Shown one piece after another: positions 13,810-56,161 of a stretch of 64,000 bases of DNA; position 1 is the stretch's first letter, and the number at the start of each line of letters is the position of its first letter. The stretch lies in contig CP066685.1 of the NCBI GenBank assembly GCA_016432345.1, forward strand, positions 695,740 to 759,739, written 5' to 3'. The notes beneath the pieces are model-generated. The model worked only from the letters and a program-made list of their open reading frames with translations. It was not told the origin of the DNA and made no database searches. Both the position numbers and the translations under genes were made by a program. The stretch is from Candidatus Levyibacteriota bacterium. GTDB lineage: Bacteria; Patescibacteriota; Microgenomatia; Levybacterales; UBA12049.

Positions 13810-13911
13810 ATGCCAAAAAATCAACAGTTGATTTTACTCGGAAAATTCTATACAATTCTAAAGGTGAAACAATTTTGCATTCTTACTGTCGTCCTTATTG
13901 ATCTCGCATAA
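13810..13911 (+). CDS. Putative ilv leader peptide (33 aa: MPKNQQLILLGKFYTILKVKQFCILTVVLIDLA), 14 of 33 residues Ile/Leu/Val
   Basis: Short ORF whose stop lies 2 nt before the first of the alternative stem-loop segments upstream of ilvB; the C-terminal third is ILTVVLIDL. Confidence 0.55.
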   Translation: MPKNQQLILLGKFYTILKVKQFCILTVVLIDLA

Positions 13912-13942
13912 ACGAGCGGGGCTGACTGTAGAAAAACATACT

Positions 13943-13966
13943 CCCGCTCATAAGCGGGATTTTTTT
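13943..13966 (+). terminator. Attenuator terminator: CCCGCT-cata-AGCGGG plus T7, abutting the ilvB ATG
   Basis: 6-bp GC-rich stem followed by TTTTTTT. The upstream segment GAGCGGGG (13914-13921) can pair with TCCCGCTC (13942-13949) as a mutually exclusive antiterminator. Confidence 0.55.
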
Positions 13967-16997: not shown

Positions 16998-17026
16998 TTG
17001 ACAAATAAGACACAACCTCTTATACT
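16998..17026 (+). promoter_or_regulatory. Sigma70-like promoter TTGACA-17 nt-TATACT; predicted start site falls at the leader ATG (leaderless leader mRNA)
   Basis: -35 TTGACA at 16998-17003, 17-nt spacer, -10 TATACT at 17021-17026, 7 nt before the ATG at 17034. Confidence 0.5.
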
Positions 17027-17033
17027 ACGATTA

Positions 17034-17090
17034 ATGAAGACAAATCAAAACATTCTCCTTACTATTGATCTCCTCCTTACGGAGATCTAA
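17034..17090 (+). CDS. Putative leu leader peptide (18 aa: MKTNQNILLTIDLLLTEI), 6 Leu and 3 Ile
   Basis: Short ORF ending 35 nt before the terminator hairpin; the Leu codons lie inside a self-complementary segment GATCTCC..GGAGATC. Confidence 0.6.
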   Translation: MKTNQNILLTIDLLLTEI

Positions 17091-17124
17091 TGGTTTGGGA
17101 GAAATAATTTTTAGATAATAACAA

Positions 17125-17150
17125 TCTCCCAAGCAAGGGAGATTTTTTTT
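17125..17150 (+). terminator. Attenuator terminator: TCTCCC-aagcaa-GGGAGA plus T8, abutting the leuA ATG
   Basis: Hairpin followed by TTTTTTTT. The upstream GGGAGA (17096-17101) and GGAGATC (17081-17087) can pair with ATCTCCC as alternatives; the 3' arm GGGAGA also serves as the Shine-Dalgarno for leuA. Confidence 0.6.
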
Positions 17151-24003: not shown

Positions 24004-24032
24004 TTGACAATAATAAATTTGTCTGCTAGTAT
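24004..24032 (+). promoter_or_regulatory. Sigma70-like promoter TTGACA-17 nt-TAGTAT, 7 nt upstream of the ilvA leader ATG
   Basis: -35 at 24004-24009, -10 at 24027-24032; leader ATG at 24040. Confidence 0.4.
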
Positions 24033-24039
24033 ACATACA

Positions 24040-24084
24040 ATGAATAAAAATCAAATTATCACAATTACCACCATTCCTTCCTAA
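24040..24084 (+). CDS. Putative ilvA leader peptide (14 aa: MNKNQIITITTIPS), 4 Ile and 4 Thr
   Basis: Short ORF whose stop codon is immediately followed by GGGAGGTG, the first arm of the alternative structures. Confidence 0.55.
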   Translation: MNKNQIITITTIPS

Positions 24085-24108
24085 GGGAGGTGTGTTTTTG
24101 TAAGAAAT

Positions 24109-24136
24109 ACCTCCCATAAAGGGAGGTTTTTTATTT
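24109..24136 (+). terminator. Attenuator terminator: ACCTCCC-ataaa-GGGAGGT plus U-run, 5 nt before the ilvA ATG
   Basis: 7-bp stem followed by TTTTTATTTT. The upstream GGGAGGTG (24085-24092) can pair with ACCTCCC as the antiterminator. Confidence 0.55.
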
Positions 24137-25432: not shown

Positions 25433-26671
25433 ATGAAGGATACAAAAAATCTAAAAGATCACAAGCAAATTGGCCAAGAGCTTGAATTATTTTTTACTCA
25501 TGACATAGCTCCTGGCGCTCCATTTTGGCTTCCTCGCGGCCTGATTATCTTTAAACAACTTGAAAAATATATTAGAGAACTAACAGAAAATGCCGGATAT
25601 TTAGAAACATCAACCCCCATAATGGTAAAATCTGAGCTGTTTAAGCAATCTGGACACTGGGAAAAATTTGGCGCGCATAATATGTATAATTTACAACTTT
25701 CAGATGAAAATGATGATTCTAAACCAGTTAGTTATTCCCTAAAACCAATGAACTGTCCCGAATCAACCATAATTTATAGATTTAGACCCAGATCGTATAG
25801 AGAATTACCCTTAAGACTGTCCGAAATTGGCAGGCTTCATAGAAGAGAAAAATCAGGGGAAGTAAACGGACTGCTTCGAGTTAGACAGTTAACTATGGAC
25901 GATGCGCATATTTATGCTACTGAAGAGCAAATTTTTGATGAGGTTTCTAATATTTTGGACATGATGATACATTTTTACGAAAGTTTTGGTTTTGAGTATG
26001 AATTCCGATTTGCCACCAGACCAGAATCCAGAGCAGGAAATGATAAAATGTGGGACAAAGCGGAAAACGCGCTATATCAAGCTTTAAAAAAGAAAAAAAT
26101 TAAAGCAGGGGACAAAATGGGAGACGGAGCATTTTATGGACCAAAAATAGACTTGCACATTAAAGATTCCCAAAAAAGAGAATGGCAACTTGCAACAGTT
26201 CAACTGGACTTCCACCAACCAGAAGCGTTTAATTTAAAATATATAGATGAAAATGGCGAGTCGCAAAGACCTGTTATGATTCACAGGGCAATCTTTGGTT
26301 CATTTGAAAGATTTATTGGTATTCTAACAGAACACTATCAAGGTAAATTTCCGCTGTGGCTTTCTCCTGTGCAAATAATACTTGTTCCAATTGCTGATCG
26401 ACACAAAGAGAAGGCAGAAAAAATCTTCAAAAAGTTACAAAATGAAGGTATTAGAGTAGAAATTGATGATCGAAAAGAGACGATGCAATCTAAAATTAGA
26501 GATGCCACTTTACAAAAAGTGCCATATATGGGTATAATAGGAGATAAAGAAACCGAAAAATCGGGCGAGTTTCTTTTGTCTGTAAGAACACGAGAGGGAA
26601 AAGATCTAGGACAATTAGCTTTCCCAATGTTTTTACAAAGGGTAAAAGAAGAAATTGATACGAAGGTTTAA
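25433..26671 (+). CDS. thrS: Threonine--tRNA ligase, catalytic core plus anticodon-binding domain only (no TGS or N2 editing domains)
   Basis: Starts directly at the DHKQIGQELELFF motif (canonical DHRKLGxELDLF, which normally lies about 240 aa into ThrRS); class II motifs and the C-terminal anticodon-binding domain are present. Sits in the conserved thrS-infC-rpmI-rplT order. Confidence 0.8.
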   Translation: MKDTKNLKDHKQIGQELELFFTHDIAPGAPFWLPRGLIIFKQLEKYIRELTENAGYLETSTPIMVKSELFKQSGHWEKFGAHNMYNLQLSDENDDSKPVSYSLKPMNCPESTIIYRFRPRSYRELPLRLSEIGRLHRREKSGEVNGLLRVRQLTMDDAHIYATEEQIFDEVSNILDMMIHFYESFGFEYEFRFATRPESRAGNDKMWDKAENALYQALKKKKIKAGDKMGDGAFYGPKIDLHIKDSQKREWQLATVQLDFHQPEAFNLKYIDENGESQRPVMIHRAIFGSFERFIGILTEHYQGKFPLWLSPVQIILVPIADRHKEKAEKIFKKLQNEGIRVEIDDRKETMQSKIRDATLQKVPYMGIIGDKETEKSGEFLLSVRTREGKDLGQLAFPMFLQRVKEEIDTKV

Positions 26672-27395: not shown

Positions 27396-27743
27396 ATGAG
27401 AGTAAAACGAGGTACAGTTTCTAGACGAAAACATAACAAACTTCATTCTCTTACCAAGGGATATAGAGGTACCAAAAGCCGCCTTACAAAGGTGGCAAAA
27501 GAAGCAATCCTTCATGCGGGCGCGTACGCGTTTCATGGAAGAAAACTTCGCAAACGAGACATACGCCAACTTTGGATTACACGTATTGGCGAAGCATCCA
27601 AACAGATGGGAATTTCTTACAGTGTTTTTATGAATAAGTTAAAAAAAGCAAATATTTTACTTGACAGAAAAATTCTAAGCGAACTTGTTGTAAATGATAC
27701 TGCTGCTTTTAAACAAGTAATTGACTCTGTTAAAAATATCTGA
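27396..27743 (+). CDS. rplT: 50S ribosomal protein L20
   Basis: MRVKRGTVSRRKHNK... canonical L20 N-terminus; 115 aa. Confidence 0.9.
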   Translation: MRVKRGTVSRRKHNKLHSLTKGYRGTKSRLTKVAKEAILHAGAYAFHGRKLRKRDIRQLWITRIGEASKQMGISYSVFMNKLKKANILLDRKILSELVVNDTAAFKQVIDSVKNI

Positions 27744-27749
27744 TAAGAT
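27721..27749 (+). promoter_or_regulatory. Sigma70-like promoter TTGACT-17 nt-TAAGAT overlapping the rplT 3' end, 10 nt upstream of the aromatic leader ATG
   Basis: -35 at 27721-27726, -10 at 27744-27749. Confidence 0.35.
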
Positions 27750-27759
27750 CAATCTACCA

Positions 27760-27813
27760 ATGAAACAATTCAACAATAGAAAAATTACTTTTTGGTTTTA
27801 TTTTACCTCCTAA
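27760..27813 (+). CDS. Putative aromatic leader peptide (17 aa: MKQFNNRKITFWFYFTS), with Phe-Trp-Phe-Tyr-Phe in 6 consecutive codons
   Basis: Short ORF directly followed by AGCGGGGA and a strong terminator before the DAHP synthase gene. Confidence 0.6.
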   Translation: MKQFNNRKITFWFYFTS

Positions 27814-27843
27814 AGCGGGGACTATTTGCGTGTTGCAAATAAG

Positions 27844-27866
27844 ATCCCCCAAAGGGGGATTTTTTG
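27844..27866 (+). terminator. Attenuator terminator: ATCCCCC-aaa-GGGGGAT plus TTTTT, 5 nt before the DAHP synthase ATG
   Basis: 7-bp stem (5 consecutive G-C pairs), 3-nt loop, U-run. The upstream GCGGGGA (27815-27821) can pair with TCCCCC as the antiterminator. Confidence 0.6.
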
Positions 27867-27871
27867 TATTT

Positions 27872-28630
27872 ATGACAAATAAAACAATTATTATAACAGG
27901 ACCATGCGCTGCCGAATCGGAAGAACAAATTCTTCTATCGGCAAAAGAAGCAAAAAAAAGGCAGGTTGACTTTTTACGGGTTAGTTTGTGGAAACCCCGC
28001 ACCAAACCCGGCTTTGACGGTTTAGGAGAAAAAGGTATCGAGCTTTTGGTAAAAGTGGCAAAAATGGGCGTAAATCCAGCTACCGAAGTTATTATTCCAT
28101 CCCATGCAGAAAAAGTTATAGACACTGTTTTAACAGCTGTACCAACCGCAAAGGTACTTCTCTGGATTGGAGCTCGAAACCAAAATCATTATATTCAGCA
28201 AGAAATTGCCCGAGCTATGGGAAACGAAAAAAGAGCATACTTAATGGTCAAAAATCAACCCTGGCCAAGCTTAGAACATTGGGAGGGAATTATTGAACAT
28301 GTACTTCATGGTGGTATTAGTAAAAACCGTCTGCTTATTTGCCATCGCGGCTTTAGTCCAAACGGACATGCAAATCCTTATGGATACCGAAATGTCCCAG
28401 ATTACGAAATGACCATGAAAATAAAAAATAAAACAAAACTTCCTGTGCTTTTTGATCCATCTCACACAGGAGGAAGTGTTGATAATGTATTTAGAATCGT
28501 CAAAGAAGCTGCAAAACATTCATTCGATGGTTTAATTATCGAAGTGCATCCAAATCCAAAAAACGCCAAAACCGATGCCAAACAACAGCTTACCTGGAAA
28601 CAATTCGATGAATTACTAAAATTAGTATGA
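27872..28630 (+). CDS. aroF: 3-deoxy-7-phosphoheptulonate (DAHP) synthase, class I-beta (KDO8PS-like), bare catalytic domain
   Basis: IITGPCAAESEEQ N-terminal motif of the Ibeta DAHPS/KDO8PS fold; roughly 250 aa; first gene of the shikimate cluster. Start set at the Met downstream of the attenuator. Confidence 0.7.
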   Translation: MTNKTIIITGPCAAESEEQILLSAKEAKKRQVDFLRVSLWKPRTKPGFDGLGEKGIELLVKVAKMGVNPATEVIIPSHAEKVIDTVLTAVPTAKVLLWIGARNQNHYIQQEIARAMGNEKRAYLMVKNQPWPSLEHWEGIIEHVLHGGISKNRLLICHRGFSPNGHANPYGYRNVPDYEMTMKIKNKTKLPVLFDPSHTGGSVDNVFRIVKEAAKHSFDGLIIEVHPNPKNAKTDAKQQLTWKQFDELLKLV

Positions 28631-29694
28631 CGCAAAAAACCTACATCATTGATACAACAGAAACAACTACTATTATTATAAATAATTATATTCTTAAAGA
28701 TATTGATTCTATTCTTAAAGAAAACAGTTATAGTATGTTTTTGCTTCTTTGTGACGATACAACAAAAAAACTTTTTATAAACAAAGTCTTAGAATCTCTA
28801 AAAAAACTTGGTAAACCCATTGAAATACATAGTCTCACTCCAGGAGAAGACAGTAAAAATACTATAAATCTTTTTCGAATTCTTGAACACATGGTTGAAA
28901 AAGGATTTGATCGAAAAAGCGCTGTTATCGCGCTTGGCGGGGGAGTTATTGGAGATATTGCGACAATCGCCGCGGGTGTATTTTTGCGGGGAATTGACTG
29001 TATTCAAATCCCAACAACACTGCTTGCCCAAGTCGATGCGGCAATTGGAGGAAAAGGCGCTGTAAATGTGCGTCATTACAAAAATATCATTGGAGTTATT
29101 AAACAACCCTCTTTTATTCTTATCGATCCAATGCTTTTAACAAAACTGCCAGAAAAACAATACAAGTCAGGAATAGGGGAAGTTTTAAAATATGCAATTG
29201 CCATGGATAAAAAACTTTTTGAACTTTTAGAAAAACAAACAAAACATACATCACTTCTTCCAATTATTAATCGCTGTGTTGAGCTGAAAACGAACATCGT
29301 GCAAAAAGACCCACATGAAAAAAGTGGAAAAAGGCAACAGCTAAATTTTGGCCATACCTTGGGGCACGCCATTGAACTCTATGCGCATCTTTCTCATGGA
29401 GAAGCAATTAGTATTGGCATGACTTTTGCAATTATTGTTAGCGAAAAATTAAATATGCTTAAAAAAGAGGACGCAAAAAAATCAATTGAACTTTTAAAAG
29501 TTTACAAACTTCCTACAACTATTTCAAAAAAATCAATTGCCAAAGACACAATTTATACACAAATGAAAAAAGACAAAAAAGCAATAGACGGCATGCCAAC
29601 TTTTGTACTCCTTGAAGGCATAGGAAAAACAAAATCTGGCTGCCATGTCCAAAGAGATATTATTGAGCAGACTTTAGACGAGATATTGATATGA
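28627..29694 (+). CDS. aroB: 3-dehydroquinate synthase
   Basis: LGGGVIGDIATIAAGVFLRGIDCIQIPTTLLAQVDAAIGGKGAVN NAD- and metal-binding motifs. Confidence 0.85.
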   Translation: MTQKTYIIDTTETTTIIINNYILKDIDSILKENSYSMFLLLCDDTTKKLFINKVLESLKKLGKPIEIHSLTPGEDSKNTINLFRILEHMVEKGFDRKSAVIALGGGVIGDIATIAAGVFLRGIDCIQIPTTLLAQVDAAIGGKGAVNVRHYKNIIGVIKQPSFILIDPMLLTKLPEKQYKSGIGEVLKYAIAMDKKLFELLEKQTKHTSLLPIINRCVELKTNIVQKDPHEKSGKRQQLNFGHTLGHAIELYAHLSHGEAISIGMTFAIIVSEKLNMLKKEDAKKSIELLKVYKLPTTISKKSIAKDTIYTQMKKDKKAIDGMPTFVLLEGIGKTKSGCHVQRDIIEQTLDEILI

Positions 29695-30125
29695 AAATTT
29701 TAGTTCTTAACGGGCCAAATCTTAATATCTTGGGAAAACGAAAAAAAGAGTTTTATGGAATATCTACACTTGATAATATCAATATCATTCTAAAAGACGC
29801 TGCAAAAAAATATGACTGCCAACTTTTATTTTTTCAATCAAATCATGAAGGAAGACTTATTGATTTTATTCAAAAACACGCAAAAAGCGCAGATGGCATA
29901 CTGATAAATCCTGGAGCGCTGACTCATTATGGGTATTCACTTCACGATGCACTAGTTGATACAAAATTACCAATTGTCGAAGTGCACCTTTCTGACATCA
30001 CAAAACGGGAAGACTTTAGAAAAATAGATGTATTTGATGGAATTGTAATTGAAAGAGTAATGGGAAAAAAAGAAAAAAGTTACGAAGAAGGACTGGAAAA
30101 ACTAATTAAACATATTAAAAAATGA
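29691..30125 (+). CDS. aroQ: 3-dehydroquinate dehydratase, type II
   Basis: ILVLNGPNLNxLGxR...HEGxLID type II DHQase signature; 144 aa. Confidence 0.85.
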   Translation: MKILVLNGPNLNILGKRKKEFYGISTLDNINIILKDAAKKYDCQLLFFQSNHEGRLIDFIQKHAKSADGILINPGALTHYGYSLHDALVDTKLPIVEVHLSDITKREDFRKIDVFDGIVIERVMGKKEKSYEEGLEKLIKHIKK

Positions 30126-31279
30126 ATATTAAGATCTATCCATCTAAAATATCAGGAGTCATAAATGCGCCGCCATCCAAAAGTATAACACACCGAGCTA
30201 TTATTGCCGCTGCTTTAGCGCATGGAACCTCTGTAATAAAAAACGTGCTTTTTTCCGATGACACAAAATACACAATTCATGCGCTACAACAACTAGGTGT
30301 AGAAATAGAACAAAACAAAACAACACTAACTATTTATGGAACTGGTGGAAAACTTATTGCTCCCAAAAAACCGCTATATGTAGGCAACTCCGGGTCAACA
30401 CTTCGCATGATCACTGCTATTGCGTCATTAGCAAAAGGTGAAACAATAATTACAGGAGAAAAACGACTGCAAAAACGCCCCATCCAAGATCTTCTTGACG
30501 CGTTAAAACAAATCAATACAAGTATAATTACAATTGATGGATCGAAAAGCTCACAGTATATTACCGCACTGCTGCTTATTGCTCCATTTGCAAAAAACAC
30601 TTTGGAAATTATTATTAAAGGGGATCTTCGTTCAAAACCATATGTTCTATTAACTCTTGATGTAATGAAATCATTCGGCGTTTCTTTCCACCTTAGAGGT
30701 GGAAACCTATTGACACCTTTGGAAAAAAACCAAAAATATAAAGGTAGAAAATATACGGTTGAAGGAGATTTTTCCTCTGCGGCATACTTTTTTGCAGCGG
30801 CCGCAATAACAAAAGGCAAAATAACAGTAAAAAATCTTAATAAGAATTCTGCGCAGGGAGACAAGAATTTTCTTAACCTCCTGCAAAAAATAGGAAGCAC
30901 TGTTGATATGAATGATTATCCTGATATTGTTCAAACACTGGCTGTTGTTGCTGCCTTTACCAAAGGAAAAACCACTATTACAAATATAAATCATTTAAAA
31001 GACAAAGAAACAAATCGTATTTCTGCGACTGCAAAGGAGCTTAGGAAAATGGGAATTGCAGTAAAAGCAACAAATGACAAACTCATTATACAGGGGGGAA
31101 TACCAAAAGGAGCAGTAATTAACACATATAACGATCACAGAATGGCCATGAGTTTTGCTGTTGCTGGTCTTGCCGCAATGGGTGAAACGATTATTCAAAA
31201 TGCAGAAGTAGTTAACAAATCGTATCCCAATTTTTGGAAAGATTTGCAAAATCTTGGAGCAAAAATAGAAGTTATATGA
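30122..31279 (+). CDS. aroA: 3-phosphoshikimate 1-carboxyvinyltransferase (EPSP synthase)
   Basis: PPSKSITHRAIIAAALA N-terminal motif, VEGDFSSAAYFFAAAAI; 385 aa. Confidence 0.85.
   Translation: MNIKIYPSKISGVINAPPSKSITHRAIIAAALAHGTSVIKNVLFSDDTKYTIHALQQLGVEIEQNKTTLTIYGTGGKLIAPKKPLYVGNSGSTLRMITAIASLAKGETIITGEKRLQKRPIQDLLDALKQINTSIITIDGSKSSQYITALLLIAPFAKNTLEIIIKGDLRSKPYVLLTLDVMKSFGVSFHLRGGNLLTPLEKNQKYKGRKYTVEGDFSSAAYFFAAAAITKGKITVKNLNKNSAQGDKNFLNLLQKIGSTVDMNDYPDIVQTLAVVAAFTKGKTTITNINHLKDKETNRISATAKELRKMGIAVKATNDKLIIQGGIPKGAVINTYNDHRMAMSFAVAGLAAMGETIIQNAEVVNKSYPNFWKDLQNLGAKIEVI
30684..30722 (+). repeat. REP-like hairpin copy inside the aroA coding sequence (TTCCACCTTAGAGGTGGAA plus CTATTGACACCTT)
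   Basis: A 37-39-nt near-identical match to the left flank of the Y1 transposase gene at 39614-39653; encodes FHLRGGNLLTPLE in frame. Confidence 0.7.
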
Positions 31280-31779
31280 ACATTGTTTTAATTGGTATGA
31301 GGGGAGCTGGTAAAACAACTGTGGCAAAACTGTTGTCTAAAAAACTGCAAAAAGAAGTTTTGGAAACAGATGACTTTATTGCAAAAAAGGCAGGTATGAC
31401 TATTGCCGAAATTGTTTTAATGAAGGGTTGGGATTATTTTCGCGATGTTGAAACGGAAGTAATTGCCGATATTTCAAAAAAAGATAATGTAATTATTTCC
31501 TGCGGCGGGGGCGTTGTAATAAGACCAAAAAATATAGATTTGTTAAAACAAAATGGGAAAATTTTTTGGCTGCAAGTTAGTGTTGCAACGCTTCTTAACA
31601 GAATCGGACACGACCAAAACCGACCATCACTCACTGGTAAGCCGCAAAAAGAGGATATGGAAGAAACGCTAAAAAAACGATATACACTATATAAAAACGC
31701 AAGCAATGTTAGTATTGATACAGAAAAACTAACTAAAAAAGAAGTGGCGCAAAAAATAATTGATTCATTATGGAAATAA
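31276..31779 (+). CDS. aroK: Shikimate kinase
   Basis: IVLIGMRGAGKTT P-loop; 167 aa; start chosen at the ATG overlapping the aroA stop (ATGA). Confidence 0.85.
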   Translation: MNIVLIGMRGAGKTTVAKLLSKKLQKEVLETDDFIAKKAGMTIAEIVLMKGWDYFRDVETEVIADISKKDNVIISCGGGVVIRPKNIDLLKQNGKIFWLQVSVATLLNRIGHDQNRPSLTGKPQKEDMEETLKKRYTLYKNASNVSIDTEKLTKKEVAQKIIDSLWK

Positions 31780-32546
31780 ATTCACAAACACAACTTTGCT
31801 GCATTATCGGTAATCCAGTAGAACATTCTCTTTCGCCAACAATTCATAATGCAGCTTATGATAATTTAGGACTAAATTTTGTTTACCTGTCATTTCGGGT
31901 AACTGATGTAAAAAATGCCATTGCGGGAATTAGAGCCCTCGGAATAAAAGGAATAAGTATTACAATTCCTCATAAAATCACTGTTATGCCGCTACTTGAT
32001 GAAATTGATAAATCAGCAAAAGAAATTGGCGCAGTGAATACTATTATAAACAACAACGGAAAACTAAAAGGTTTTAATACCGATTATAAAGGCGCCATAC
32101 GAGCTCTTGAAGAAAAAACAACGCTTACCGGAAAACACGTTGTATTACTCGGTAAAGGTGGAGCAGGAAAAGCAATTGCCTTTGGGCTTAAAGAAAAAAA
32201 TGCATCAGTCTTTATCGTTAACAGAGCAATAGAAAAGACAAAAGTTTTAGCAGAAATTAAGAAAGCAGATATACTAATCAATGCCACGCCTATTGGCATG
32301 CATCCAAAAACAGAAGAATCGTTAATACCCAAAAAATATCTTCATAAAAACCTGATTGTTTTCGATATTGTCTATAACCCAAAAGAAACAAAATTACTAA
32401 AATATGCAAAAGAAGCTGGATGTGCAATTGTCTATGGTTATAAAATGCTCTTATACCAGGCAGTATCGCAGTTTGAGCTTTTTACCAATCACAAAGCGCC
32501 AGTTGCTATAATGGAGGAGGCTTTATTATTATGCTTAAATTCTTAA
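31770..32546 (+). CDS. aroE: Shikimate dehydrogenase
   Basis: GNPVEHSLSPTIHNAAY substrate-binding motif; GKGGAGKA Rossmann motif. Confidence 0.85.
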   Translation: MEINSQTQLCCIIGNPVEHSLSPTIHNAAYDNLGLNFVYLSFRVTDVKNAIAGIRALGIKGISITIPHKITVMPLLDEIDKSAKEIGAVNTIINNNGKLKGFNTDYKGAIRALEEKTTLTGKHVVLLGKGGAGKAIAFGLKEKNASVFIVNRAIEKTKVLAEIKKADILINATPIGMHPKTEESLIPKKYLHKNLIVFDIVYNPKETKLLKYAKEAGCAIVYGYKMLLYQAVSQFELFTNHKAPVAIMEEALLLCLNS

Positions 32547-33658
32547 CAGCAGGCGAATCACACGGTAAAGCAGAAATTGCTATTTTAGAAGGCATGCCGG
32601 CCGGTCTTTTCATTTCCCATGAAGACATAAATCGCGAATTAAAAAAGCGCATGCATGACTACGGACGAGGAGGACGGGCAGAAATAGAAACTGACGAGGC
32701 GAAAATTCTCTCCGGAGTTAGACAGGGAAAAACCATCGGCAGCCCAATTGCCTTGCTTGTAGAAAACAAAGACCAGGCTAAATGGGAAGATAAAATAACC
32801 AAACCCCGTCCAGGACACGCAGATTTAGCGGGAAGTTTAAAATACGGCTTTGATGATGTCCGAAATGTTTTGGAAAGAGCATCGGCTCGAGAAACAGTGA
32901 TGCGGGTGGCAGTTGGCGCTGTTTGTAAAAAGTTTTTATCTGAATTTGGCATAGAAATTGCCAGTCATACAATTCGTATCGGCAAAATTGCCATTACAAA
33001 AACTGATTATTCATTTGATGAAATAAAAGATATTTATATAAAAGATCCCGATGTCCATTGTATTGACAAAAACACTCAAGAAAAAATGAAACAAGAAATA
33101 ACAAATGCTCGTCTTAACAAAGATACCTTGGGAGGAATTGTAGAAATTATTGCTCATAATGTTCCAGTAGGTCTTGGCAGTTATGTTCATTTTGACAAAA
33201 GACTTGATGCCAACATTGCACAAGCTTTAATGAGTGTACCATCGGTAAAAGCTGTAGAAATCGGCAATGGCATCGAAGCATCTGGCAAAACAGGAAAAGA
33301 AATACAAGATGCAATTACTGTTTCTAATAATTCTATACAACGAAAAACCAATAATATGGGAGGCATTGAAGGCGGCATGAGCAATGGAGAAGATATTGTC
33401 TGTCGAGTCTACCATAAACCTCTTTCGACAATTTATGATCCTCTCCCAACTGTTGATATAAAAACAAAAGAAAAAACTGTTGCAGCTATTGAAAGATCGG
33501 ATGTATGCGTGGCGCCTCGCGCTGGGGTTGTATCAGAAAGCATGATTGCATATACACTTGCTCAAGCAATGTTAGAAAAATTTGGCGGAGATTCATTACA
33601 AGAAACAAAAAGAAATTTTGACGCATACATTAAATTACTGCCGATTAAACGCGTATGA
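32531..33658 (+). CDS. aroC: Chorismate synthase
   Basis: FLTAGESHG N-terminus, GGRxSARETxxRVAxGA motif; 375 aa. Confidence 0.9.
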   Translation: MLKFLTAGESHGKAEIAILEGMPAGLFISHEDINRELKKRMHDYGRGGRAEIETDEAKILSGVRQGKTIGSPIALLVENKDQAKWEDKITKPRPGHADLAGSLKYGFDDVRNVLERASARETVMRVAVGAVCKKFLSEFGIEIASHTIRIGKIAITKTDYSFDEIKDIYIKDPDVHCIDKNTQEKMKQEITNARLNKDTLGGIVEIIAHNVPVGLGSYVHFDKRLDANIAQALMSVPSVKAVEIGNGIEASGKTGKEIQDAITVSNNSIQRKTNNMGGIEGGMSNGEDIVCRVYHKPLSTIYDPLPTVDIKTKEKTVAAIERSDVCVAPRAGVVSESMIAYTLAQAMLEKFGGDSLQETKRNFDAYIKLLPIKRV

Positions 33659-35328
33659 AAAATAATCAACCATTAATTGGCATTATTGGCGGAACTGGAA
33701 AAATGGGGCAGTGGTTCACCCAGTTTTTCCAGGATCATGAGCTATTGGTACTCACTGCTTCGAGAAAAACAGCTCTTTCGATAGAATCTCTTGCCAAAAA
33801 AGCAAACATCATTATAGTTTCTGTTCCCATCTCCGAAACGCAAAAAACACTTAAAAAAATTATTCCGCATATATCAAAAGACAAACTTCTAACAGACTTA
33901 ACATCATTCAAAGTAATGCCCATGGAAACAATGAAAGAGGCAGAATCTGGAACGTTAGGCATGCATCCGCTTTTTGGACCAAGCGCAACGCTTGATCAAA
34001 AATTAAAAATAGTTTTTTGCAAACAAAAAAATAATTCTCATGTTACTTTTTTAGAAGATCTTTTTACAAAATCAGGCATTGAAATAATTGAAATATCTGC
34101 CGAAGAACACGACTACCAAATGGCTTACATTCAAGCATTCACCAATGCTATAAATTTACTATATGCCAAAATTATTTTTGAGCATAAAAACGTGCTAGAA
34201 AACAAACTGCATACACCTATTTTTACTTTACAATCACTTATTATGGGTAGAGTTTTAAACCAGGATATAAAATTAACCAGTGATTTACAATTATATAATC
34301 CCTATTTTTTGCCCGTACTAGAAGCATTTGTTACTCAGGCAAAAAAGTTAGAAACTATTATTGAAAAAGAAGATGAAAAAGCATTTGTCGAAATGTTTTC
34401 CGAAGAACAAGCGTTGACAAAAAATTTTGCCAGTTTTTCCACATTACAAACAAATAAGCTGCTGCTGCAAGTCAACAATGTTACAGTAACAATTCCATCT
34501 AAAATTTCGGAAATTGATTTGTCAAAAAATGCAGATGTTGCATATTTAGGACCGGAAGGAACATTTTCTCATCTGGCAGTTTTAACTGCTATGCCTCATA
34601 ATACAAAAGTTTCCTACGAAACTATATATGATATTTTTAACGCCGTACAAAATGGAGATATTAAATTAGGCATTATCCCCGCAGAAAACTCAATAGAGGG
34701 AACAGTTAAAGAAACATTAGATTATCTTATTGATTTTTCTTTAATGGTTATTGGTTCTTTCGAACTTCCTATTCATCAACAGTTTCTCTCGAAAGAAAAA
34801 AATTTAACAAATATTCACACTGTCGCATCACATCCTCAAGCCCTTGCCCAATGCAGAAACTGGATTAAAAAGCATGTGCCAAACGCCAAAACAATTTCAA
34901 CATCAAGCACTACAAACGCCTTACAAAATCCCCAAAAAGGCTACGCCTACATTGCGTCAAAACTTGCTGCAAAGCAATACCATATGTCTATCCTTGTAAA
35001 AGACATAGAAGATAACCCAAACAACAGGACAAAATTCTATATTGTAGCCAGAAAAAAAATAAAAATTGATGGCATAAGCAATAACAAAACATTGATCTTT
35101 GCTACAGTGCATAATAGAGTAGGAATCCTTCGCGACATTCTAAACGTTTTTGCAACCCATCAAATAAATTTAACAAAATTAGAATCAAGACCAAGCGGCG
35201 GCAAACATGTTTGGGACTATCACTTTTTTATTGAATTTGAAAAGAATCAAAAAAATGTTTCCCTCTCACAACTGTTTAGCGAACTTAAGCCATACTGCCC
35301 AATCATTCGAACCTTGGGAAAAACATGA
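33655..35328 (+). CDS. Fused prephenate dehydrogenase (TyrA) and prephenate dehydratase with ACT domain (PheA)
   Basis: N-terminal roughly 280 aa: NAD Rossmann IGIIGGTGKMGQWF and GMHPLFGP (TyrA). C-terminal half: AYLGPEGTFSH, GIIPAENSIEG, TKLESRP and a terminal ACT region (PDT-ACT). One uninterrupted 557-aa ORF. Confidence 0.75.
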   Translation: MKNNQPLIGIIGGTGKMGQWFTQFFQDHELLVLTASRKTALSIESLAKKANIIIVSVPISETQKTLKKIIPHISKDKLLTDLTSFKVMPMETMKEAESGTLGMHPLFGPSATLDQKLKIVFCKQKNNSHVTFLEDLFTKSGIEIIEISAEEHDYQMAYIQAFTNAINLLYAKIIFEHKNVLENKLHTPIFTLQSLIMGRVLNQDIKLTSDLQLYNPYFLPVLEAFVTQAKKLETIIEKEDEKAFVEMFSEEQALTKNFASFSTLQTNKLLLQVNNVTVTIPSKISEIDLSKNADVAYLGPEGTFSHLAVLTAMPHNTKVSYETIYDIFNAVQNGDIKLGIIPAENSIEGTVKETLDYLIDFSLMVIGSFELPIHQQFLSKEKNLTNIHTVASHPQALAQCRNWIKKHVPNAKTISTSSTTNALQNPQKGYAYIASKLAAKQYHMSILVKDIEDNPNNRTKFYIVARKKIKIDGISNNKTLIFATVHNRVGILRDILNVFATHQINLTKLESRPSGGKHVWDYHFFIEFEKNQKNVSLSQLFSELKPYCPIIRTLGKT

Positions 35329-35340
35329 TATACTAAATAT

Positions 35341-35601
35341 ATGGATCAACTAGAAATATTACGAAAAAATATAGACCAGATTGACAACGATATTTTAACT
35401 CTTTTAGTAAAACGGTTTTCTCTTGTTAAAAAAATTGGAGTGTATAAAAAAAATAATAATATGTTGATTGTAAATAAAAATAGGGAAGAAGAAAAAATAA
35501 ATGCTTTAATCAAAACTGGCAATATGTTTAACATGTCAAAAGAATTTATCCAAAATATCTGGCAAACAATTTTTGCAGAAAGTTATAAACTGGAAATATA
35601 A
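35341..35601 (+). CDS. Chorismate mutase, AroQ class, monofunctional
   Basis: 86 aa; LRKNIDQIDNDILTLLVKRFSL helix-1 signature of AroQ-type chorismate mutases. Confidence 0.75.
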   Translation: MDQLEILRKNIDQIDNDILTLLVKRFSLVKKIGVYKKNNNMLIVNKNREEEKINALIKTGNMFNMSKEFIQNIWQTIFAESYKLEI

Positions 35602-35607
35602 TATCTT

Positions 35608-36525
35608 ATGCCAACAGTATATTTTAACGGCAAATTTATTCCCGAAAACCAAGCTTTAGTACCAATCAATACTCATGCTTTGCATTATGGCACTGGCTGT
35701 TTTGAAGGAATAAGAGCTTACTATTCGGAAAAAGAAAATGCCTTATTAGTATTTCGCATGCAGGATCATTACAAAAGATTTTTGCAATCGTGTAAAATCT
35801 TAATGACAACCCCTGAAGAATCGGTTGATAAATTATGTGAGATAACAACTAAACTTATTCAAAAAAACTTTGAAAAAATTGATTTATACATTCGACCGCT
35901 GGCTTACAAAGCCGATCGGGCTGTCGGGAATTTTAATTTAAAATTCCTTAAAAACGGCTTGGCAATTTATACAATTGCCTTTGGCCGCTACCTTAACACC
36001 GACAAAGGTATTAGAGCAAACGTTAGCTCCTGGCGAAGAATTCCTGACAATGTTATTCCTGCTAGAGCCAAAATTACCGGCGGTTATGTAAATAGTTCTT
36101 TGGCCAAAACAGAAAGTTTGTTAGCCGGATATGAAGAAGCGCTATTCTTAGATAATCAAGGACACGTCATGGAAGGCACTGGAGAAAATATTTTTATTGT
36201 TAGAGACGGCATTGTTATAACCCCGCCAGAATCAGACGATATTTTAATTGGCATCACAAGACTTACCGTGATGACTCTTTTAAAAAATGATTTGGGAATC
36301 ACAGTTATTGAAAGGAGTATTGATAGAGCAGAGCTTTATCAAACCGACGAAGTTTTTGTGGTAGGAACTGCCGCAGAAGTTACGCCAGTTGTAGAAATCG
36401 ATGGAAGAATAATTAGCAACGGTAAAATTGGCAAAATAACAGCAGATGTAAAAGATTTATATTTTAAACTTGTTCATGGAGATTATCCAAAATATAGAAA
36501 ATTTATCACAAAAGTAGAGCTATAA
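35608..36525 (+). CDS. ilvE: Fold-type IV PLP aminotransferase (branched-chain amino-acid aminotransferase IlvE-like)
   Basis: HALHYGTGCFEGIRAY motif typical of BCAT; 305 aa. Lies at the end of the aromatic cluster, so it may serve both pathways. Confidence 0.65.
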   Translation: MPTVYFNGKFIPENQALVPINTHALHYGTGCFEGIRAYYSEKENALLVFRMQDHYKRFLQSCKILMTTPEESVDKLCEITTKLIQKNFEKIDLYIRPLAYKADRAVGNFNLKFLKNGLAIYTIAFGRYLNTDKGIRANVSSWRRIPDNVIPARAKITGGYVNSSLAKTESLLAGYEEALFLDNQGHVMEGTGENIFIVRDGIVITPPESDDILIGITRLTVMTLLKNDLGITVIERSIDRAELYQTDEVFVVGTAAEVTPVVEIDGRIISNGKIGKITADVKDLYFKLVHGDYPKYRKFITKVEL

Positions 36526-36527
36526 AC

Positions 36528-37565
36528 ATGGAAGAGCAACTAATCGATATTAAAAATGCCGCGCTTTCTTTAATTCTTGATGCAAAAGATAAGGCAGAAC
36601 TCGAGGAAATAAAATTACAATTTTTAGGAAGAAACGGCACATTTACTTTAATATTAAAAGACCTTCCAAAAATCCCAAAAGAAAAAAGGCCTGCCGTTGG
36701 ACAACTAGCTAATAGTGTCAAAATAACGATCTCTGACGCAATTGATAGACAAAACTTAAAACTAAAAACCGAAAAACCAAAACAGCAAAAAGATGTTCTT
36801 GATGTTACCATGCCTGGCCACAAACCGCCGCTTGGACACCATCATCTTATTACCCAAGCAATTTCAGAGATTACTGCTATATTTGAAAAAATTGGTTTTA
36901 CCCGCGTCAAATACCCAGAGGTCGAATGGGATTGGTACGCCTTTGAAGGATTGAATTTTCCTAAAGATCACCCAGCCCGAGACGACTGGGAAACATTTTT
37001 TATCAAACAAAAACCAGATCCTAAAAAAGGCCCGGTTATTTTAACCCCTCATACTTCTTCCGGGCAGATTAGAGAAATGGAACGGGTAAAAACTCCTCCA
37101 ATTAGAATGCTTAACATCGCCAAATGCTACCGAAGACAATCTGACGTTTCTCATTCACCAATGTTTCACCAATTTGAAGGATTAGTAGTAGACAAAAATA
37201 TTTCAATCACACATCTAAAAGGAACGCTTGATTATTTTGTTAAATCATACTTTGGCGCCAACAGAAAATCTCGAATTAGACCATACCATTTTCAGTTTAC
37301 CGAACCGTCATTTGAAGTTGATGTTTCCTGTGGCATTTGTCTTGGCCGAGGATGTAAACTTTGTAAAGCAGGATGGTTGGAAATGGGAGGAGCAGGCATG
37401 GTCCATCCAAATGTTCTAAAATTTGGGGGAATTAATTCTAAAGAGTACTCTGGATTTGCTTTTGGTTGGGGAGTCGAACGAGTGTTGATGATGAAAGAAG
37501 GAATAGAGATAGACGATCTGCGATTATTATATTCCAATAATTTAGATTTCTTAGAGCAATTCTAG
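36528..37565 (+). CDS. pheS: Phenylalanine--tRNA ligase alpha subunit
   Basis: Class II motifs (FPKDHPARD, CYRRQSDVSHSPMFHQFEGL, GWLEMGGAGMVHP); 345 aa. Confidence 0.9.
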   Translation: MEEQLIDIKNAALSLILDAKDKAELEEIKLQFLGRNGTFTLILKDLPKIPKEKRPAVGQLANSVKITISDAIDRQNLKLKTEKPKQQKDVLDVTMPGHKPPLGHHHLITQAISEITAIFEKIGFTRVKYPEVEWDWYAFEGLNFPKDHPARDDWETFFIKQKPDPKKGPVILTPHTSSGQIREMERVKTPPIRMLNIAKCYRRQSDVSHSPMFHQFEGLVVDKNISITHLKGTLDYFVKSYFGANRKSRIRPYHFQFTEPSFEVDVSCGICLGRGCKLCKAGWLEMGGAGMVHPNVLKFGGINSKEYSGFAFGWGVERVLMMKEGIEIDDLRLLYSNNLDFLEQF

Positions 37566-37647
37566 TATCAGCGTATAGTTAATAGCGTCTAGCGTATAGT
37601 TTTAGATTTAACTAAACGCTAATTTCTAAACGCTATACGCTAAATAT
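37566..37647 (+). repeat. Imperfect palindromic repeat element of the AGCGTATAG / CTAAACGCT family filling the pheS-pheT spacer
   Basis: CAGCGTATAGTT, TAGCGTCTAGCGTATAGTT ... CTAAACGCTATACGCTA: inverted arms able to form a long hairpin; shares motifs with 48901-48977 and 49946-49976. Confidence 0.7.
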
Positions 37648-39609
37648 ATGAATATAAAAATTTTAGACAGTTGGCTTCGTCAACACATAAAAACAAAAGC
37701 CACGCCGGAAAAAATTGCCGAAATTTTATCTCTTACTTCTGTATCTGTTGAAAGAATTGAAAAAATCGACAATGATTTTATCTATGATATCGAAGTAACA
37801 ACAAACAGGCCAGACATTATGTCTGTTATTGGGCTGGCACGAGAAACTGCAGCAGCCTTAAAACAGTCCGGAATCGATGCAACATATATTCCTTATCTAC
37901 CAAAAGGGCTCGAAAAAGTAAAAAGTAATACCAAAGTTATTATTAAAAATGATGCAAGACTGGTAAATAGAATTTGTGCTGTTGTAATGGATGTGAACAT
38001 AAAACCAACTCCGGATATTATTACAAAAAGAATCGAAGCATCAGGCATTCGATCACTCAATAATCTTATTGATATAACAAATTATGTCATGCTGGAAATT
38101 GGTCATCCAACCCATGTCTTTGATTACGATAGATTACTAGAATCTACCCTTATCATTCGAGAGTCTAAAAAAGGAGAAAAAGTTACTACCCTTGATAACA
38201 AAACGCATACACTTCTAGGCGGAGATATTGTGGCAGATAACGGAAAAGGAGAAATTATAGATTTGCTGGGGATTATGGGCACAAAAAACAGTGTGGTAAC
38301 CAACAATACAAAAAGAATACTCTTCTTTATCGACAACAACGATCCTGTTCGCATTAGAAAAACATCTATGTCTTTAGGCATTCGAACAGATGCTGCTGTA
38401 ATAAACGAAAAAAATATCGATCCAACACTTGCTATGACTTCGCTGCTTGCCGGAATCGAGTTATACAAGGAATCGACAGATGGAAAAATGCTCTCCAACA
38501 TCATAGATATCTACCCAAATAAAGTAAAACCAAAAATAGTATCTGTAACACTCAAAAAAATTCAAACCCTTTTGGGCATCAACATAAACCTATCAACTGT
38601 TATACAAATCCTTAAAAGCCTAGAATTTGAAGTAGTAAGTAAAAAAAACGACCAATTGGTAGTTTCTGTACCCAGTTTTAGGACAAACGACGTTACGATA
38701 GAAGAGGATATTTGTGAAGAAGTCGCCCGCCTTTACGGGTACCATAACTTGCCGACTTTGCTTCCTCCACTTTCAAGTATCCAACATTACTCTGTTGAAA
38801 AAAACAGTTTTTATTGGGAGGAACGAATTAAAAATATCCTTAAGTACTGGGGATTTACCGAAATGTATACATATTCGTTGGTTTCAGAAGACTTGTTTGA
38901 TGGACCGGTAGAAAATGCAGTCAAGCTATCAAACCCATTAACAGAAGATATGTTATATCTACGAAAAACACTAATTCCCAGTCTTTTGCAGACGGTAAGA
39001 GAAAATAAAAACCGAGAGTCTATGATGATTTTTGAAATTGCCAATATTTACGAAAAAACAGATGACAAACATCTTCCTAACGAAATCCCAATGCTGGCCG
39101 GCATTGTAAAAAAACAAGATGTAACATTTTTCGACGTCAAGGGAATACTGGAACAGCTTTTTGCCGATGTAGGAATATCAAATATCCAATTCAAAAAAAA
39201 TAAAGAGGGGATAGAAAAAATACATATCCACTGCAATAACTCTGTTATTGGAGAAGTTGAAATCCTGGAAGAAACTTTAATTAACTTTGAAATAAATTTT
39301 GTAAAGTTATTGTCTTTCGTAAACAACAAAAAAGTCTATACCCCAATTGGCAAATATCCGCCAATTATTGAGGACATCGCTTTTATTTTTGAAAAACCAA
39401 TTACAGTTGGAGATGTTATTTCAGAAATAAAAAGCCAAGATCCTCTTATTAAAGAAGTTTCCCTATTAGATGCTTATGAGCATACAAAAACATTTCATAT
39501 TATTTACCAACATAGAGAAAAAAATCTTACTTCAGAGGATGTTGCACCCATCCGGGAAAAAATCCTCAAAGCAATTAAAGAAACCTTCTGTGCAAAAATA
39601 AAAGAATAA
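37648..39609 (+). CDS. pheT: Phenylalanine--tRNA ligase beta subunit, short form (653 aa; apparently lacking the N-terminal EMAP-type tRNA-binding domain)
   Basis: B3/4 and B5 region motifs (DIEVTTNRPDIMSVIGLARE); length about 150 aa less than typical bacterial PheT. Confidence 0.8.
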   Translation: MNIKILDSWLRQHIKTKATPEKIAEILSLTSVSVERIEKIDNDFIYDIEVTTNRPDIMSVIGLARETAAALKQSGIDATYIPYLPKGLEKVKSNTKVIIKNDARLVNRICAVVMDVNIKPTPDIITKRIEASGIRSLNNLIDITNYVMLEIGHPTHVFDYDRLLESTLIIRESKKGEKVTTLDNKTHTLLGGDIVADNGKGEIIDLLGIMGTKNSVVTNNTKRILFFIDNNDPVRIRKTSMSLGIRTDAAVINEKNIDPTLAMTSLLAGIELYKESTDGKMLSNIIDIYPNKVKPKIVSVTLKKIQTLLGININLSTVIQILKSLEFEVVSKKNDQLVVSVPSFRTNDVTIEEDICEEVARLYGYHNLPTLLPPLSSIQHYSVEKNSFYWEERIKNILKYWGFTEMYTYSLVSEDLFDGPVENAVKLSNPLTEDMLYLRKTLIPSLLQTVRENKNRESMMIFEIANIYEKTDDKHLPNEIPMLAGIVKKQDVTFFDVKGILEQLFADVGISNIQFKKNKEGIEKIHIHCNNSVIGEVEILEETLINFEINFVKLLSFVNNKKVYTPIGKYPPIIEDIAFIFEKPITVGDVISEIKSQDPLIKEVSLLDAYEHTKTFHIIYQHREKNLTSEDVAPIREKILKAIKETFCAKIKE

Positions 39610-39613
39610 ACTA

Positions 39614-39653
39614 CTTTTCCACCTTAGAGGTGGAATGCTATTGACACCTTGGG
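39614..39653 (+). repeat. Left REP-like hairpin of the Y1-transposase unit (TTCCACC-TTAGA-GGTGGAA plus downstream CTATTGACACCTT)
   Basis: Perfect 7-bp stem hairpin; its exact reverse complement occurs at 40378-40396. Confidence 0.7.
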
Positions 39654-40353
39654 TATTTTCGTTTACTCTAGCAATATGCCGGGAAGAAAAACGCCACTGG
39701 TAAATAACGAAATATACCACATCTTTAATAGAGGTGTCGCATCGCAACCAACATTTCTCAATAAAAGAGACTATGACAGAGCTTTAGAAACAATTTTCTA
39801 CTATCAAAATAGCATTCCTCCAATAAAATACTCTCGTTTCCTATCTTTATCTACAGAAGATAGAACTGAGTTATTCGAAAATTTAGCAAAACAGAAAAAT
39901 TTTCTAGTAGAAATCATTTCGTACTGCCTTATGCCTAATCACTTTCATTTTCTGTTGAGACAAATAAAAGATGGTGGTATTGCAAAGTTTATAAGTAACT
40001 TTACAAATAGTTATACCCGCTTTTTCAATACAAAACGAGAAAGAACAGGGCCGCTTTTTACAGGAAAGTTTAAATCTGTAAGGATTGAAACACAAGAACA
40101 ACTTCTCCACGTTTCAAGATATATCCATTTGAATCCATATACTTCTTTTGTTGCAAAAACACTTAAAGACCTTGAAACTTATCCCTATTCTTCTTTTCCA
40201 GAATTCATTAACAAAGTAAAATCAAATTTTTGTACTAAGGACATTGTTTTAGCTAACTACAAAAATATAGAATCTTATAAACAATTCGTTTTTGACCAAG
40301 CAGACTACCAACGATCATTAGGTCTAATAAAACATCTAACCACAGAGAATTAG
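39649..40353 (+). mobile_element. HUH-Y1 transposase of the IS200 / REP-associated tyrosine transposase (RAYT) type
   Basis: YHIFNRG N-terminal motif, HUH motif MPNHFHFLL, catalytic-Tyr helix VSRYIHLNPY (YIxxNP signature); flanked by inverted REP-like hairpins. Confidence 0.7.
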
Positions 40354-48900: not shown

Positions 48901-48977
48901 TTAGCGTATAGATACTAGCATCTAGCGTTTAGTTAAAAAAACTATACGCTAATTTACTAGACGCTAAACGCTGTATT
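48901..48977 (+). repeat. Palindromic repeat element (TAGCGTATAG ... CTATACGCTA ... TAGACGCTAAACGCT) filling the rnc-rpsP spacer
   Basis: Same motif family and arm arrangement as 37566-37647; ends 1 nt before the rpsP ATG. Confidence 0.7.
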
Positions 48978-53222: not shown

Positions 53223-53268
53223 CTTTCTATACGATTAGCGTATCAGTTTATCACATAAACTGTCAATG

Positions 53269-53826: not shown

Positions 53827-53831
53827 TTTTA

Positions 53832-56139: not shown

Positions 56140-56141
56140 TC
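56000..56141 (-). repeat. About 140-bp segment (pilin 5' coding plus upstream leader with an AGCGTATAG x3 array), identical copy 1
   Basis: Identical by eye to 59809-59940, including AGCGTATAGCAGGTAGCGTATAGCGTATAG. Confidence 0.85.
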
Positions 56142-56161
56142 CTTAAAATAAAAGTTTACAA

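Follow-up and report, generated by a model that had tools for sequence, protein, structure and literature searches.

A 64,000-nt stretch of a Candidatus Levyibacteriota genome (GCA_016432345.1, contig CP066685.1; hereafter the window, with positions counted from its first letter) carries, between rplT and the gene for 3-deoxy-D-arabino-heptulosonate 7-phosphate (DAHP) synthase, a short aromatic leader, the aro leader, which is very probably a classical ribosome-mediated (leader-peptide) transcription attenuator. Judged by its codons, it would report charging of tRNA-Phe and probably also of tRNA-Tyr and tRNA-Trp. The original prediction had read the spacer in this way from the letters of the window; that reading is now supported by the micro-open reading frame (micro-ORF) and the terminator and antiterminator behind it, by a segment that tracks the terminator arm from lineage to lineage, and by conserved spacing. 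Every element it listed is present, with coordinates shifted by one base.

Sequence analysis and comparison show the ORF with its regulatory codons and the two alternative structures, together with the geometry and conservation of these elements (Table 1). As claimed, there is a 17-codon ORF with Phe-Trp-Phe-Tyr-Phe; these five aromatic codons are consecutive, and on the plus strand of the window the ORF is the only aromatic-rich micro-ORF (at least five Phe, Trp, or Tyr in seven residues) with a terminator behind it. The promoter that had been placed ahead of it is also there, with its −35 hexamer, TTGACT, located within the 3′ end of rplT, and its position relative to the leader start is conserved across loci. 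An extended −10 TG stands at 27741-27742, one base 5′ of the −10 hexamer TAAGAT, and the predicted transcription start at about 27756 would give the leader a 5′ untranslated region (UTR) of about 4 nt. We found no terminator in the gap that separates rplT from the leader ORF, and read-through transcripts from rplT would also meet the attenuator. Past the leader stop, the ATCCCCC/GGGGGAT hairpin and T-run of the original prediction are borne out, except that they end 6 nt and not 5 nt before the DAHP synthase ATG; the stem can be extended to 27841-27863 (10 bp, −13.6 kcal/mol). The alternative pairing that it had proposed, of a segment just past the stop with TCCCCC, likewise finds complementary segments in place, GGGGA and TCCCC. 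An inner hairpin, TATTTGC (27823-27829) with GCAAATA (27835-27841), lengthens this antiterminator to a 13-bp interrupted stem, whose energy was computed for 27814-27850 with the segment 2:3 helix stacked on the inner hairpin. A hairpin between segments 1 and 2 is proposed to act as an anti-antiterminator or pause hairpin. The whole regulatory element takes up about 105 nt.

Table 1. Predicted elements of the aro leader and the genes on either side, in window coordinates.
Feature	Position	Strand	Description
rplT	27396-27743	+	last gene of thrS-infC-rpmI-rplT; stop TGA 27741-27743
Sigma-70-like promoter (predicted)	27721-27749	+	−35 TTGACT 27721-27726, 17-nt spacer, −10 TAAGAT 27744-27749; score 9/12 plus TG
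Leader-peptide ORF	27760-27813	+	ATG 27760, TAA 27811-27813; 17 codons plus TAA, encoding MKQFNNRKITFWFYFTS
Regulatory codons F-W-F-Y-F	27790-27804	+	TTT 27790, TGG 27793, TTT 27796, TAT 27799, TTT 27802; proposed ribosome stall sites
Segment 1, CCTCC	27806-27810	+	within codons Thr-Ser; weak pairing with segment 2
Segment 2, GGGGA	27817-27821	+	antiterminator 5′ strand; 12 nt past the last aromatic codon, 6 nt past the first base of the stop codon
Antiterminator (predicted)	27817-27849	+	GGGGA (27817-27821) with UCCCC (27845-27849), extended via an inner hairpin; excludes the terminator; −15.6 kcal/mol, z −3.7
Intrinsic terminator (predicted)	27844-27865	+	segment 3 ATCCCCC (27844-27850), loop AAA, segment 4 GGGGGAT (27854-27860), T6 27860-27865
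DAHP synthase, type I-beta	27872-28630	+	first structural gene; 252 aa, catalytic barrel only, without N-terminal regulatory or chorismate mutase domain
Remaining co-directional array	28627-39609	+	aroB, aroQ, aroA, aroK, aroE, aroC, tyrA-pheA fusion, chorismate mutase, IlvE-type aminotransferase, pheS, pheT
pheS	36528-37565	+	
pheT	37648-39609	+	

What we infer from these elements is a start site just ahead of the leader, leader translation, stalling, regulated termination, and co-transcription as far as pheT. Transcription would begin at the promoter overlapping the rplT end, a few bases before the leader AUG, and the near-leaderless mRNA would be translated into MKQFNNRKITFWFYFTS. If an aromatic aminoacyl-tRNA were scarce, the ribosome would stall at the Phe-Trp-Phe-Tyr-Phe run with its footprint covering segment 1 and sparing GGGGA; the free GGGGA would pair with UCCCC once this was transcribed, and the resulting 13-bp antiterminator would block the terminator and let RNA polymerase enter the operon. 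With charged tRNAs, the ribosome would instead reach the UAA and mask GGGGA, the terminator stem (27844-27860) with its U-run would form, and transcription would halt 6 nt before the DAHP synthase start. Segment 2 would fall inside the footprint of a ribosome terminating at this stop, since the two begin at 27817 and 27811, respectively.

We compared 77 loci with DAHP synthase relatives, one genome per species, and scored as leaders those ORFs that start with ATG, run for 8 to 45 codons, contain at least five Phe, Trp, or Tyr in seven residues, and lie within 330 nt upstream. Such aromatic micro-ORFs occur in 47 of 73 proximal upstream regions (64%), compared with 8/1460 shuffles (0.5%), 34/2106 other windows of the same loci (1.6%), and 1/73 reverse complements, an enrichment of roughly 40- to 100-fold over shuffled and nonhomologous controls. 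Inspection of the apparent negatives revealed leaders with GTG starts (L002, L031, and L032); other leaders lie about 1 to 2 kb upstream, before a gene inserted ahead of DAHP synthase (L021-L024, L033, L040, L049, and L077). All types summed, about 59 of the 77 loci have one, at orthologous and nonorthologous positions alike, which is how the homolog search of spacers suggested with the original prediction turned out. Leader-bearing loci are labelled as Levy-, Davies-, Roizman-, and Pacebacteria and other Patescibacteria; many of these labels are generic third-party annotation (TPA) ones and were not relied on. Twelve Vampirovibrionales also bear aromatic leaders, including Vampirovibrio chlorellavorus (MKNTRWQNSFYFFYFYGFPVGVVC).

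Phe is present in 47 of 47 aromatic runs, Tyr in 46, and Trp in 23 (residue totals, F 157, Y 97, and W 23). Phe and Tyr are each encoded by both of their synonymous codons (TTT 146, TTC 37; TAT 61, TAC 45), which suggests that it is the decoded amino acid that is under selection. Conservation is limited to the aromatic run; the leaders vary in N-terminus, length (14 to 27 aa), and C-terminal tail. The leader stays at the 5′ end of the operon with or without rplT upstream and whichever gene comes first. Synteny of rplT, leader, and DAHP synthase is found in L002-L008, L010, L016, and L051, with L010 having the order rplT-leader-DAHP synthase-pheS; in Vampirovibrionales the leader accompanies DAHP synthase without rplT, and the operon order is DAHP synthase-aroA-aroK-aroC.

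The two structures recur along with the codons. A GC hairpin with a T-run lies no more than 80 nt past the stop in 47 of 48 leaders (mostly 19 to 45 nt; 7.7% expected), with stems that differ by lineage (CCTCCC/GGGAGG, CCCCGC/GCGGGG, TCCCCC/GGGGGA, AGCTCCC/GGGAGCT, and GGCCTCCC/GGGAGGCC). The segment between the aromatic codons and the terminator is complementary to the terminator 5′ arm above the level of shuffles (P < 0.05) in 60% of loci, and its match to the arm of the same locus exceeds that to arms taken from other loci (786 versus 662 ± 16; 0 of 5000 permutations reached the observed value). When the stretch that begins 6 nt past the last aromatic codon and ends with the terminator 5′ arm was folded without constraints, each of the 47 leaders gave a long hairpin closed by a helix that includes this arm (mean z, −3.8; 94% below −1.64). 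Median fold energies are −19.1 kcal/mol for the antiterminator and −13.3 kcal/mol for the terminator. These per-locus shuffles, between-locus permutations, and per-sequence folds were used in place of an alignment: MAFFT with RNAalifold on 36 leader-to-terminator sequences was dropped after it placed the G- and C-rich segments in inconsistent register and recovered three terminator pairs.

Spacing is also conserved across the 47 leaders. From the last aromatic codon to segment 2 the distance is 9 to 20 nt (median, 12; interquartile range, 10 to 14), while the position of the stop codon relative to the first base of segment 2 ranges from 6 nt on the 5′ side to 27 nt on the 3′ side; spacing that is kept relative to the codon run and not to the stop fits the footprint of a stalled ribosome, the size of which is assumed in this geometry test. 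Matches of at least 9/12 to TTGACA-16/18-TATAAT, with the −10 element ending 4 to 13 nt before the leader start, are present at 68% of the 47 loci and at 1.3% of random positions, and L003 and L007 have the identical TTGACT-17-TAAGAT with TG. Promoters ending this close to the start would make the leader mRNA nearly leaderless, and no Shine-Dalgarno sequence was found ahead of the window leader ORF or of the related leader ORFs. Near-leaderless translation of leader peptides is likely the rule in the window and its related loci.

Could the hairpin simply be the intrinsic terminator of thrS-infC-rpmI-rplT, and the aromatic micro-ORF a chance product of a T-rich spacer? It does lie 100 nt past rplT with no other terminator between, and five relatives (L080, L081, L095, L106, and L152) have a plain, leaderless terminator and nothing else between rplT and pheS. 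However, micro-ORF, terminator, and antiterminator recur together without rplT upstream (L011-L014, L017-L019, L027, all Vampirovibrionales) and ahead of an inserted kinase gene, and the chance rate of such micro-ORFs is 0.5 to 1.6%; we regard this explanation as very unlikely and already contradicted by the comparative data. The conserved hydrophobic aromatic core might also point to a small functional peptide, membrane associated or toxin-like, that is no sensor in cis. The conservation confined to the aromatic run, a tail whose nucleotide sequence is constrained by segments 1 and 2, and the constant presence, alongside the ORF, of a terminator/antiterminator pair and genes for aromatic biosynthesis argue otherwise and leave this idea with next to no credibility. 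T-box or TRAP control is common for aromatic amino acid and aminoacyl-tRNA synthetase genes in Firmicutes, and a ligand-, tRNA-, or protein-binding riboregulator (T-box, TRAP-like, PCE-like, or a riboswitch) would make the ORF irrelevant. Yet neither the window nor 20 orthologous or related loci gave an Rfam match at gathering score, and the T-box model (RF00230) gave no match in 27500-28100 even at an E value of ≤10. The element conserves an in-frame aromatic codon run and two stems rather than a binding pocket, with spacing that follows the codon run, and a riboregulator of this kind is therefore highly improbable.

A further possibility, which we consider unlikely, is that the leader does sense aromatic tRNA charging and that the output is Rho-dependent polarity, mRNA stability, or occlusion of the first gene's ribosome-binding region by the hairpin. 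The 3′ arm of the window terminator (GGGGGA, 27854-27859) resembles a Shine-Dalgarno sequence 12 nt ahead of the DAHP synthase ATG, and the equivalent arms in L003, L007, and L010 (GGGGGA or GGGAGG) do so too, at 6 to 12 nt from the start codon; the hairpin could thus additionally hide the ribosome-binding site of the first gene. Against these other outputs stand the canonical GC stem followed directly by a T-run in every leader and the location of four of the six strongest plus-strand hairpin-plus-T-run sites in the window at leader ORFs. In many loci, moreover, the hairpin is 30 to 200 nt from the first gene, so occlusion would not be the general mechanism.

Several results nevertheless weigh against attenuation as proposed here, or against parts of it. 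Intrinsic termination has not been demonstrated in bacteria of the candidate phyla radiation (CPR), a point that also favors the other outputs just discussed. The segment 2:3 helix in the window is just 5 bp long (shuffle P = 0.09), and segments 1 and 2 form a weak hairpin (−4.4 kcal/mol). Equilibrium energies favor the inner hairpin plus terminator (−19.4 kcal/mol) over the antiterminator (−15.6 kcal/mol), which means that read-through has to be kinetic; constrained folding, a check put forward with the original prediction, returned the terminator every time when run with a masked ribosome footprint, and read-through was not reproduced by equilibrium thermodynamics alone. Taken by themselves, promoter hexamers do not exceed expectation significantly in the window (69 promoter-like sites versus 61.5 expected), and the missing Shine-Dalgarno sequence means that leader translation would rely on a leaderless start or on re-initiation after rplT. 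About 14 evaluable relatives have no leader. Trp and Tyr have one codon each in the window leader and may contribute little to sensing; in Corynebacterium glutamicum, the aroR leader (Phe-Tyr-Phe) upstream of aroF responds to Phe, and Tyr availability has no effect (PMC11802643). Finally, attenuator control would extend as far as pheT if judged by gene packing alone, and internal promoters are possible.

The C. glutamicum aroR-aroF system (Neshat et al. 2014, summarised in PMC11802643; first noted in PMC4046766) is, by analogy, the closest functional counterpart of the window element, and E. coli pheM is the closest positional one. In aroR-aroF, as in the window, a mixed aromatic leader directly precedes an operon that begins with a DAHP synthase gene, ribosome stalling raises read-through as we propose for the window leader, and C. 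glutamicum leader peptides are also translated without a ribosome-binding site. The two differ in phylum and have no detectable sequence relationship. Compared with aroR, the window leader has five consecutive aromatic codons including Trp, and its operon joins pheST and the genes of the Phe/Tyr branch to the complete common pathway, with a type I-beta DAHP synthase reduced to the bare barrel. Experimental support exists for aroR-aroF, whereas the window element is a prediction from sequence.

In E. coli the order is thrS-infC-rpmI-rplT-pheM-pheS-pheT, and in the window it is thrS-infC-rpmI-rplT-leader-...-pheS-pheT on the same strand, so the window element takes the place of pheM, and ten inserted aromatic genes separate it from pheS. 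The peptides end alike (FFFYFST in pheM and ...ITFWFYFTS in the window), though too short for a homology test. In both, the antiterminator strand begins just past the stop codon, and the pheM terminator, AGCCTCCC-AGT-GGAGGCT plus T-run, is of the same type as that of the window. In E. coli, rplT is followed by a terminator of its own and the 5′ UTR is longer, and the window leader has Trp and Tyr besides Phe; convergence between the two is plausible. Aminoacyl-tRNA synthetase gene attenuators are known in gamma-proteobacteria and Streptomyces (PMC1262725).

A scan with PheS found pheS directly after rplT in most relatives, and the rplT-pheS spacers of six Patescibacteria (L135, L137, L140, L142, L148, and L154) contain a Phe-rich micro-ORF (MKSFFFASFFG, MKVFFFASFFGYI, MIRTFFFSG..., or MKLFTFTSFFFRI), a hairpin (AGCTCTCC...GAGAGC), and a T-run, a pattern by which we class them as predicted pheM-like attenuators with Phe-only leaders. 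A more far-reaching history can be imagined in which the attenuator at the rplT|pheS junction is an old pheM-type element common to Proteobacteria and Patescibacteria; a Levybacteria lineage would then have captured the whole aromatic pathway behind it and broadened the leader from Phe only to Phe/Trp/Tyr, and the module of leader and bare DAHP synthase would have moved between Patescibacteria and Vampirovibrionales. The result would be a phylum-spanning RNA family without an Rfam model, with leaderless leader mRNAs, that replaces the missing allostery of DAHP synthase. We regard this scenario as speculative and, taken whole, rather doubtful.

Among Rfam models, the best weak match to the window element was Phe_leader (RF01859, the pheL-pheA type), whose alignment falls mostly on the terminator and scores 22 bits (E = 0.33) where gathering requires 55. 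That family and the Trp, His, Leu, and Thr leader families belong to the same mechanism class as the window element. The matches seen at a permissive threshold, to Phe_leader, to CRISPR-DR63 (on the strand opposite the hairpin), and to small nucleolar RNA (snoRNA) and small RNA (sRNA) models, were rejected as noise. A literature search for reports of attenuation or leader peptides in CPR, Patescibacteria, or Vampirovibrio returned nothing, although it did not cover two comparative attenuator surveys, and an earlier mention in other phyla is possible.

By NCBIfam assignment, the plus-strand order in the window is ilvA, thrS (short form), infC, rpmI, rplT, the leader, and DAHP synthase through pheS and pheT, in agreement with the gene content from DAHP synthase to pheST given by the original prediction. 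DAHP synthase through pheT make up 12 co-directional genes that overlap or are separated by gaps of no more than 12 nt, except for an 82-nt pheS-pheT spacer, and no strong plus-strand terminator was found between 27865 and 39609. A Candidatus Levyibacteriota metagenome-assembled genome (CPR/Patescibacteria) encodes a protein with 100% identity to the DAHP synthase; the synthase aligns to positions 93-324 of a 338-position model and to 118-348 of a 360-position fused-enzyme model. Lacking an allosteric domain, it may leave the attenuator as the main feedback on pathway entry.

The trp branch is absent from the aro operon. When a trp operon was sought elsewhere in the window, a minus-strand cluster of ten genes at 50125-57289 was rejected: its products include PilM-like and GspG/pseudopilin-like proteins, and the cluster is a type IV pilus locus and not an amino acid operon. 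Type IV pilus loci are common in CPR genomes.

Two synthetases of this region are short. ThrRS (25433-26671; 412 aa) matches positions 168-564 of a 565-position bacterial model, without the N-terminal editing/TGS region, and PheT (653 aa) matches 156-797 of 798, without the N-terminal tRNA-binding domain; by these alignments both are truncated synthetases, typical of reduced genomes. The pheS-pheT spacer (37566-37647) is filled by a palindromic TAGCGTN-heptamer element that forms a hairpin (−27.4 kcal/mol, z −4.1) and may affect pheT expression. Further copies lie at 48902-48966, 49953-49983, 56030-56060, and 59840-59870; a 10-mer of the element has 23 matches versus 2 expected, and an ORF just past pheT (39649-40353) resembles a repetitive extragenic palindrome (REP)-associated tyrosine transposase (RAYT). 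Together, the palindromes and this ORF look like a REP/RAYT-like system in a CPR genome.

Three more units of leader and terminator with matching codons occur in the window, upstream of ilvB, leuA, and ilvA. The ilvB leader-like unit (13810-13959) has a 33-codon ORF, MPKNQQLILLGKFYTILKVKQFCILTVVLIDLA, with an Ile/Leu/Val-rich end, followed by GAGCGGGG and a terminator, TCCCGCTC-ATAA-GCGGGA plus T-run, directly 5′ of the acetolactate synthase large-subunit gene (start at about 13968). The leuA leader (16998-17144) has a promoter, TTGACA-17-TATACT, whose −10 element ends 7 nt before the ATG at 17034, the ORF MKTNQNILLTIDLLLTEI (17034-17090), and a terminator, AATCTCCC...GGGAGATT plus T-run (17123-17144), 6 nt before leuA; the operon continues with ilvD, ridA, leuC, leuD, and leuB. 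The ilvA leader (24004-24127) is built similarly, with TTGACA-17-TAGTAT, a −10 element ending 7 nt before the ATG at 24040, the ORF MNKNQIITITTIPS (24040-24084), segments CCTTCC/GGGAGG/CCTCCC/GGGAGG, and a terminator at 24109-24127.

Other arrangements are seen among the DAHP synthase relatives. Two loci without an aromatic leader (L026 and L030, labelled Peribacteria) have a gene for a TrpR/YerC-like small helix-turn-helix protein directly upstream of DAHP synthase, and two others (L015 and L025) have a trpF-like gene upstream, which suggests alternative regulatory solutions. The gene between the aromatic leader and DAHP synthase in L022-L024, L033, L040, L049, and L077 is PfkB-family kinase-like; no aroK homologue was seen in the fetched flanks of these loci, and the gene may be a nonorthologous shikimate kinase or an unrelated passenger. 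About 170 to 90 nt upstream of DAHP synthase in L072 (labelled Waddliaceae), a Tyr-rich micro-ORF, MQPFAANSAANSYYYRYLPTRRQGIG, is followed by AAGCCCCGC...GCGGGGCTT plus T-run, and this element may be a Tyr-sensing attenuator in an environmental chlamydia.

CPR bacteria are usually portrayed as metabolically dependent, and to our knowledge almost nothing is known about gene regulation in them. The window, from a CPR genome, contains a complete aromatic amino acid operon with closely packed genes, and four biosynthetic operons in it (ilvB, leuA, ilvA, and aro) are each headed by a predicted leader-peptide attenuator. If these elements work, the host would sense its own tRNA charging and tune de novo synthesis accordingly, and coupled transcription-translation and intrinsic terminators would operate in these organisms. 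The comparative evidence supports the aro leader as a new, widely conserved candidate leader-peptide attenuator in lineages for which the literature search returned no earlier description. The mechanism itself is ordinary; what distinguishes the element is its phylogenetic setting, the near-leaderless arrangement, a leader for three amino acids, and the tie to the pheM position. With a DAHP synthase reduced to the bare catalytic barrel, attenuation may even be the sole feedback on pathway entry. Conserved in about 59 genomes, Vampirovibrionales among them, the aro leader could become an RNA family model for annotation, and its parallel with E. coli rplT-pheM-pheST would offer a concrete case of an attenuator gaining new genes.

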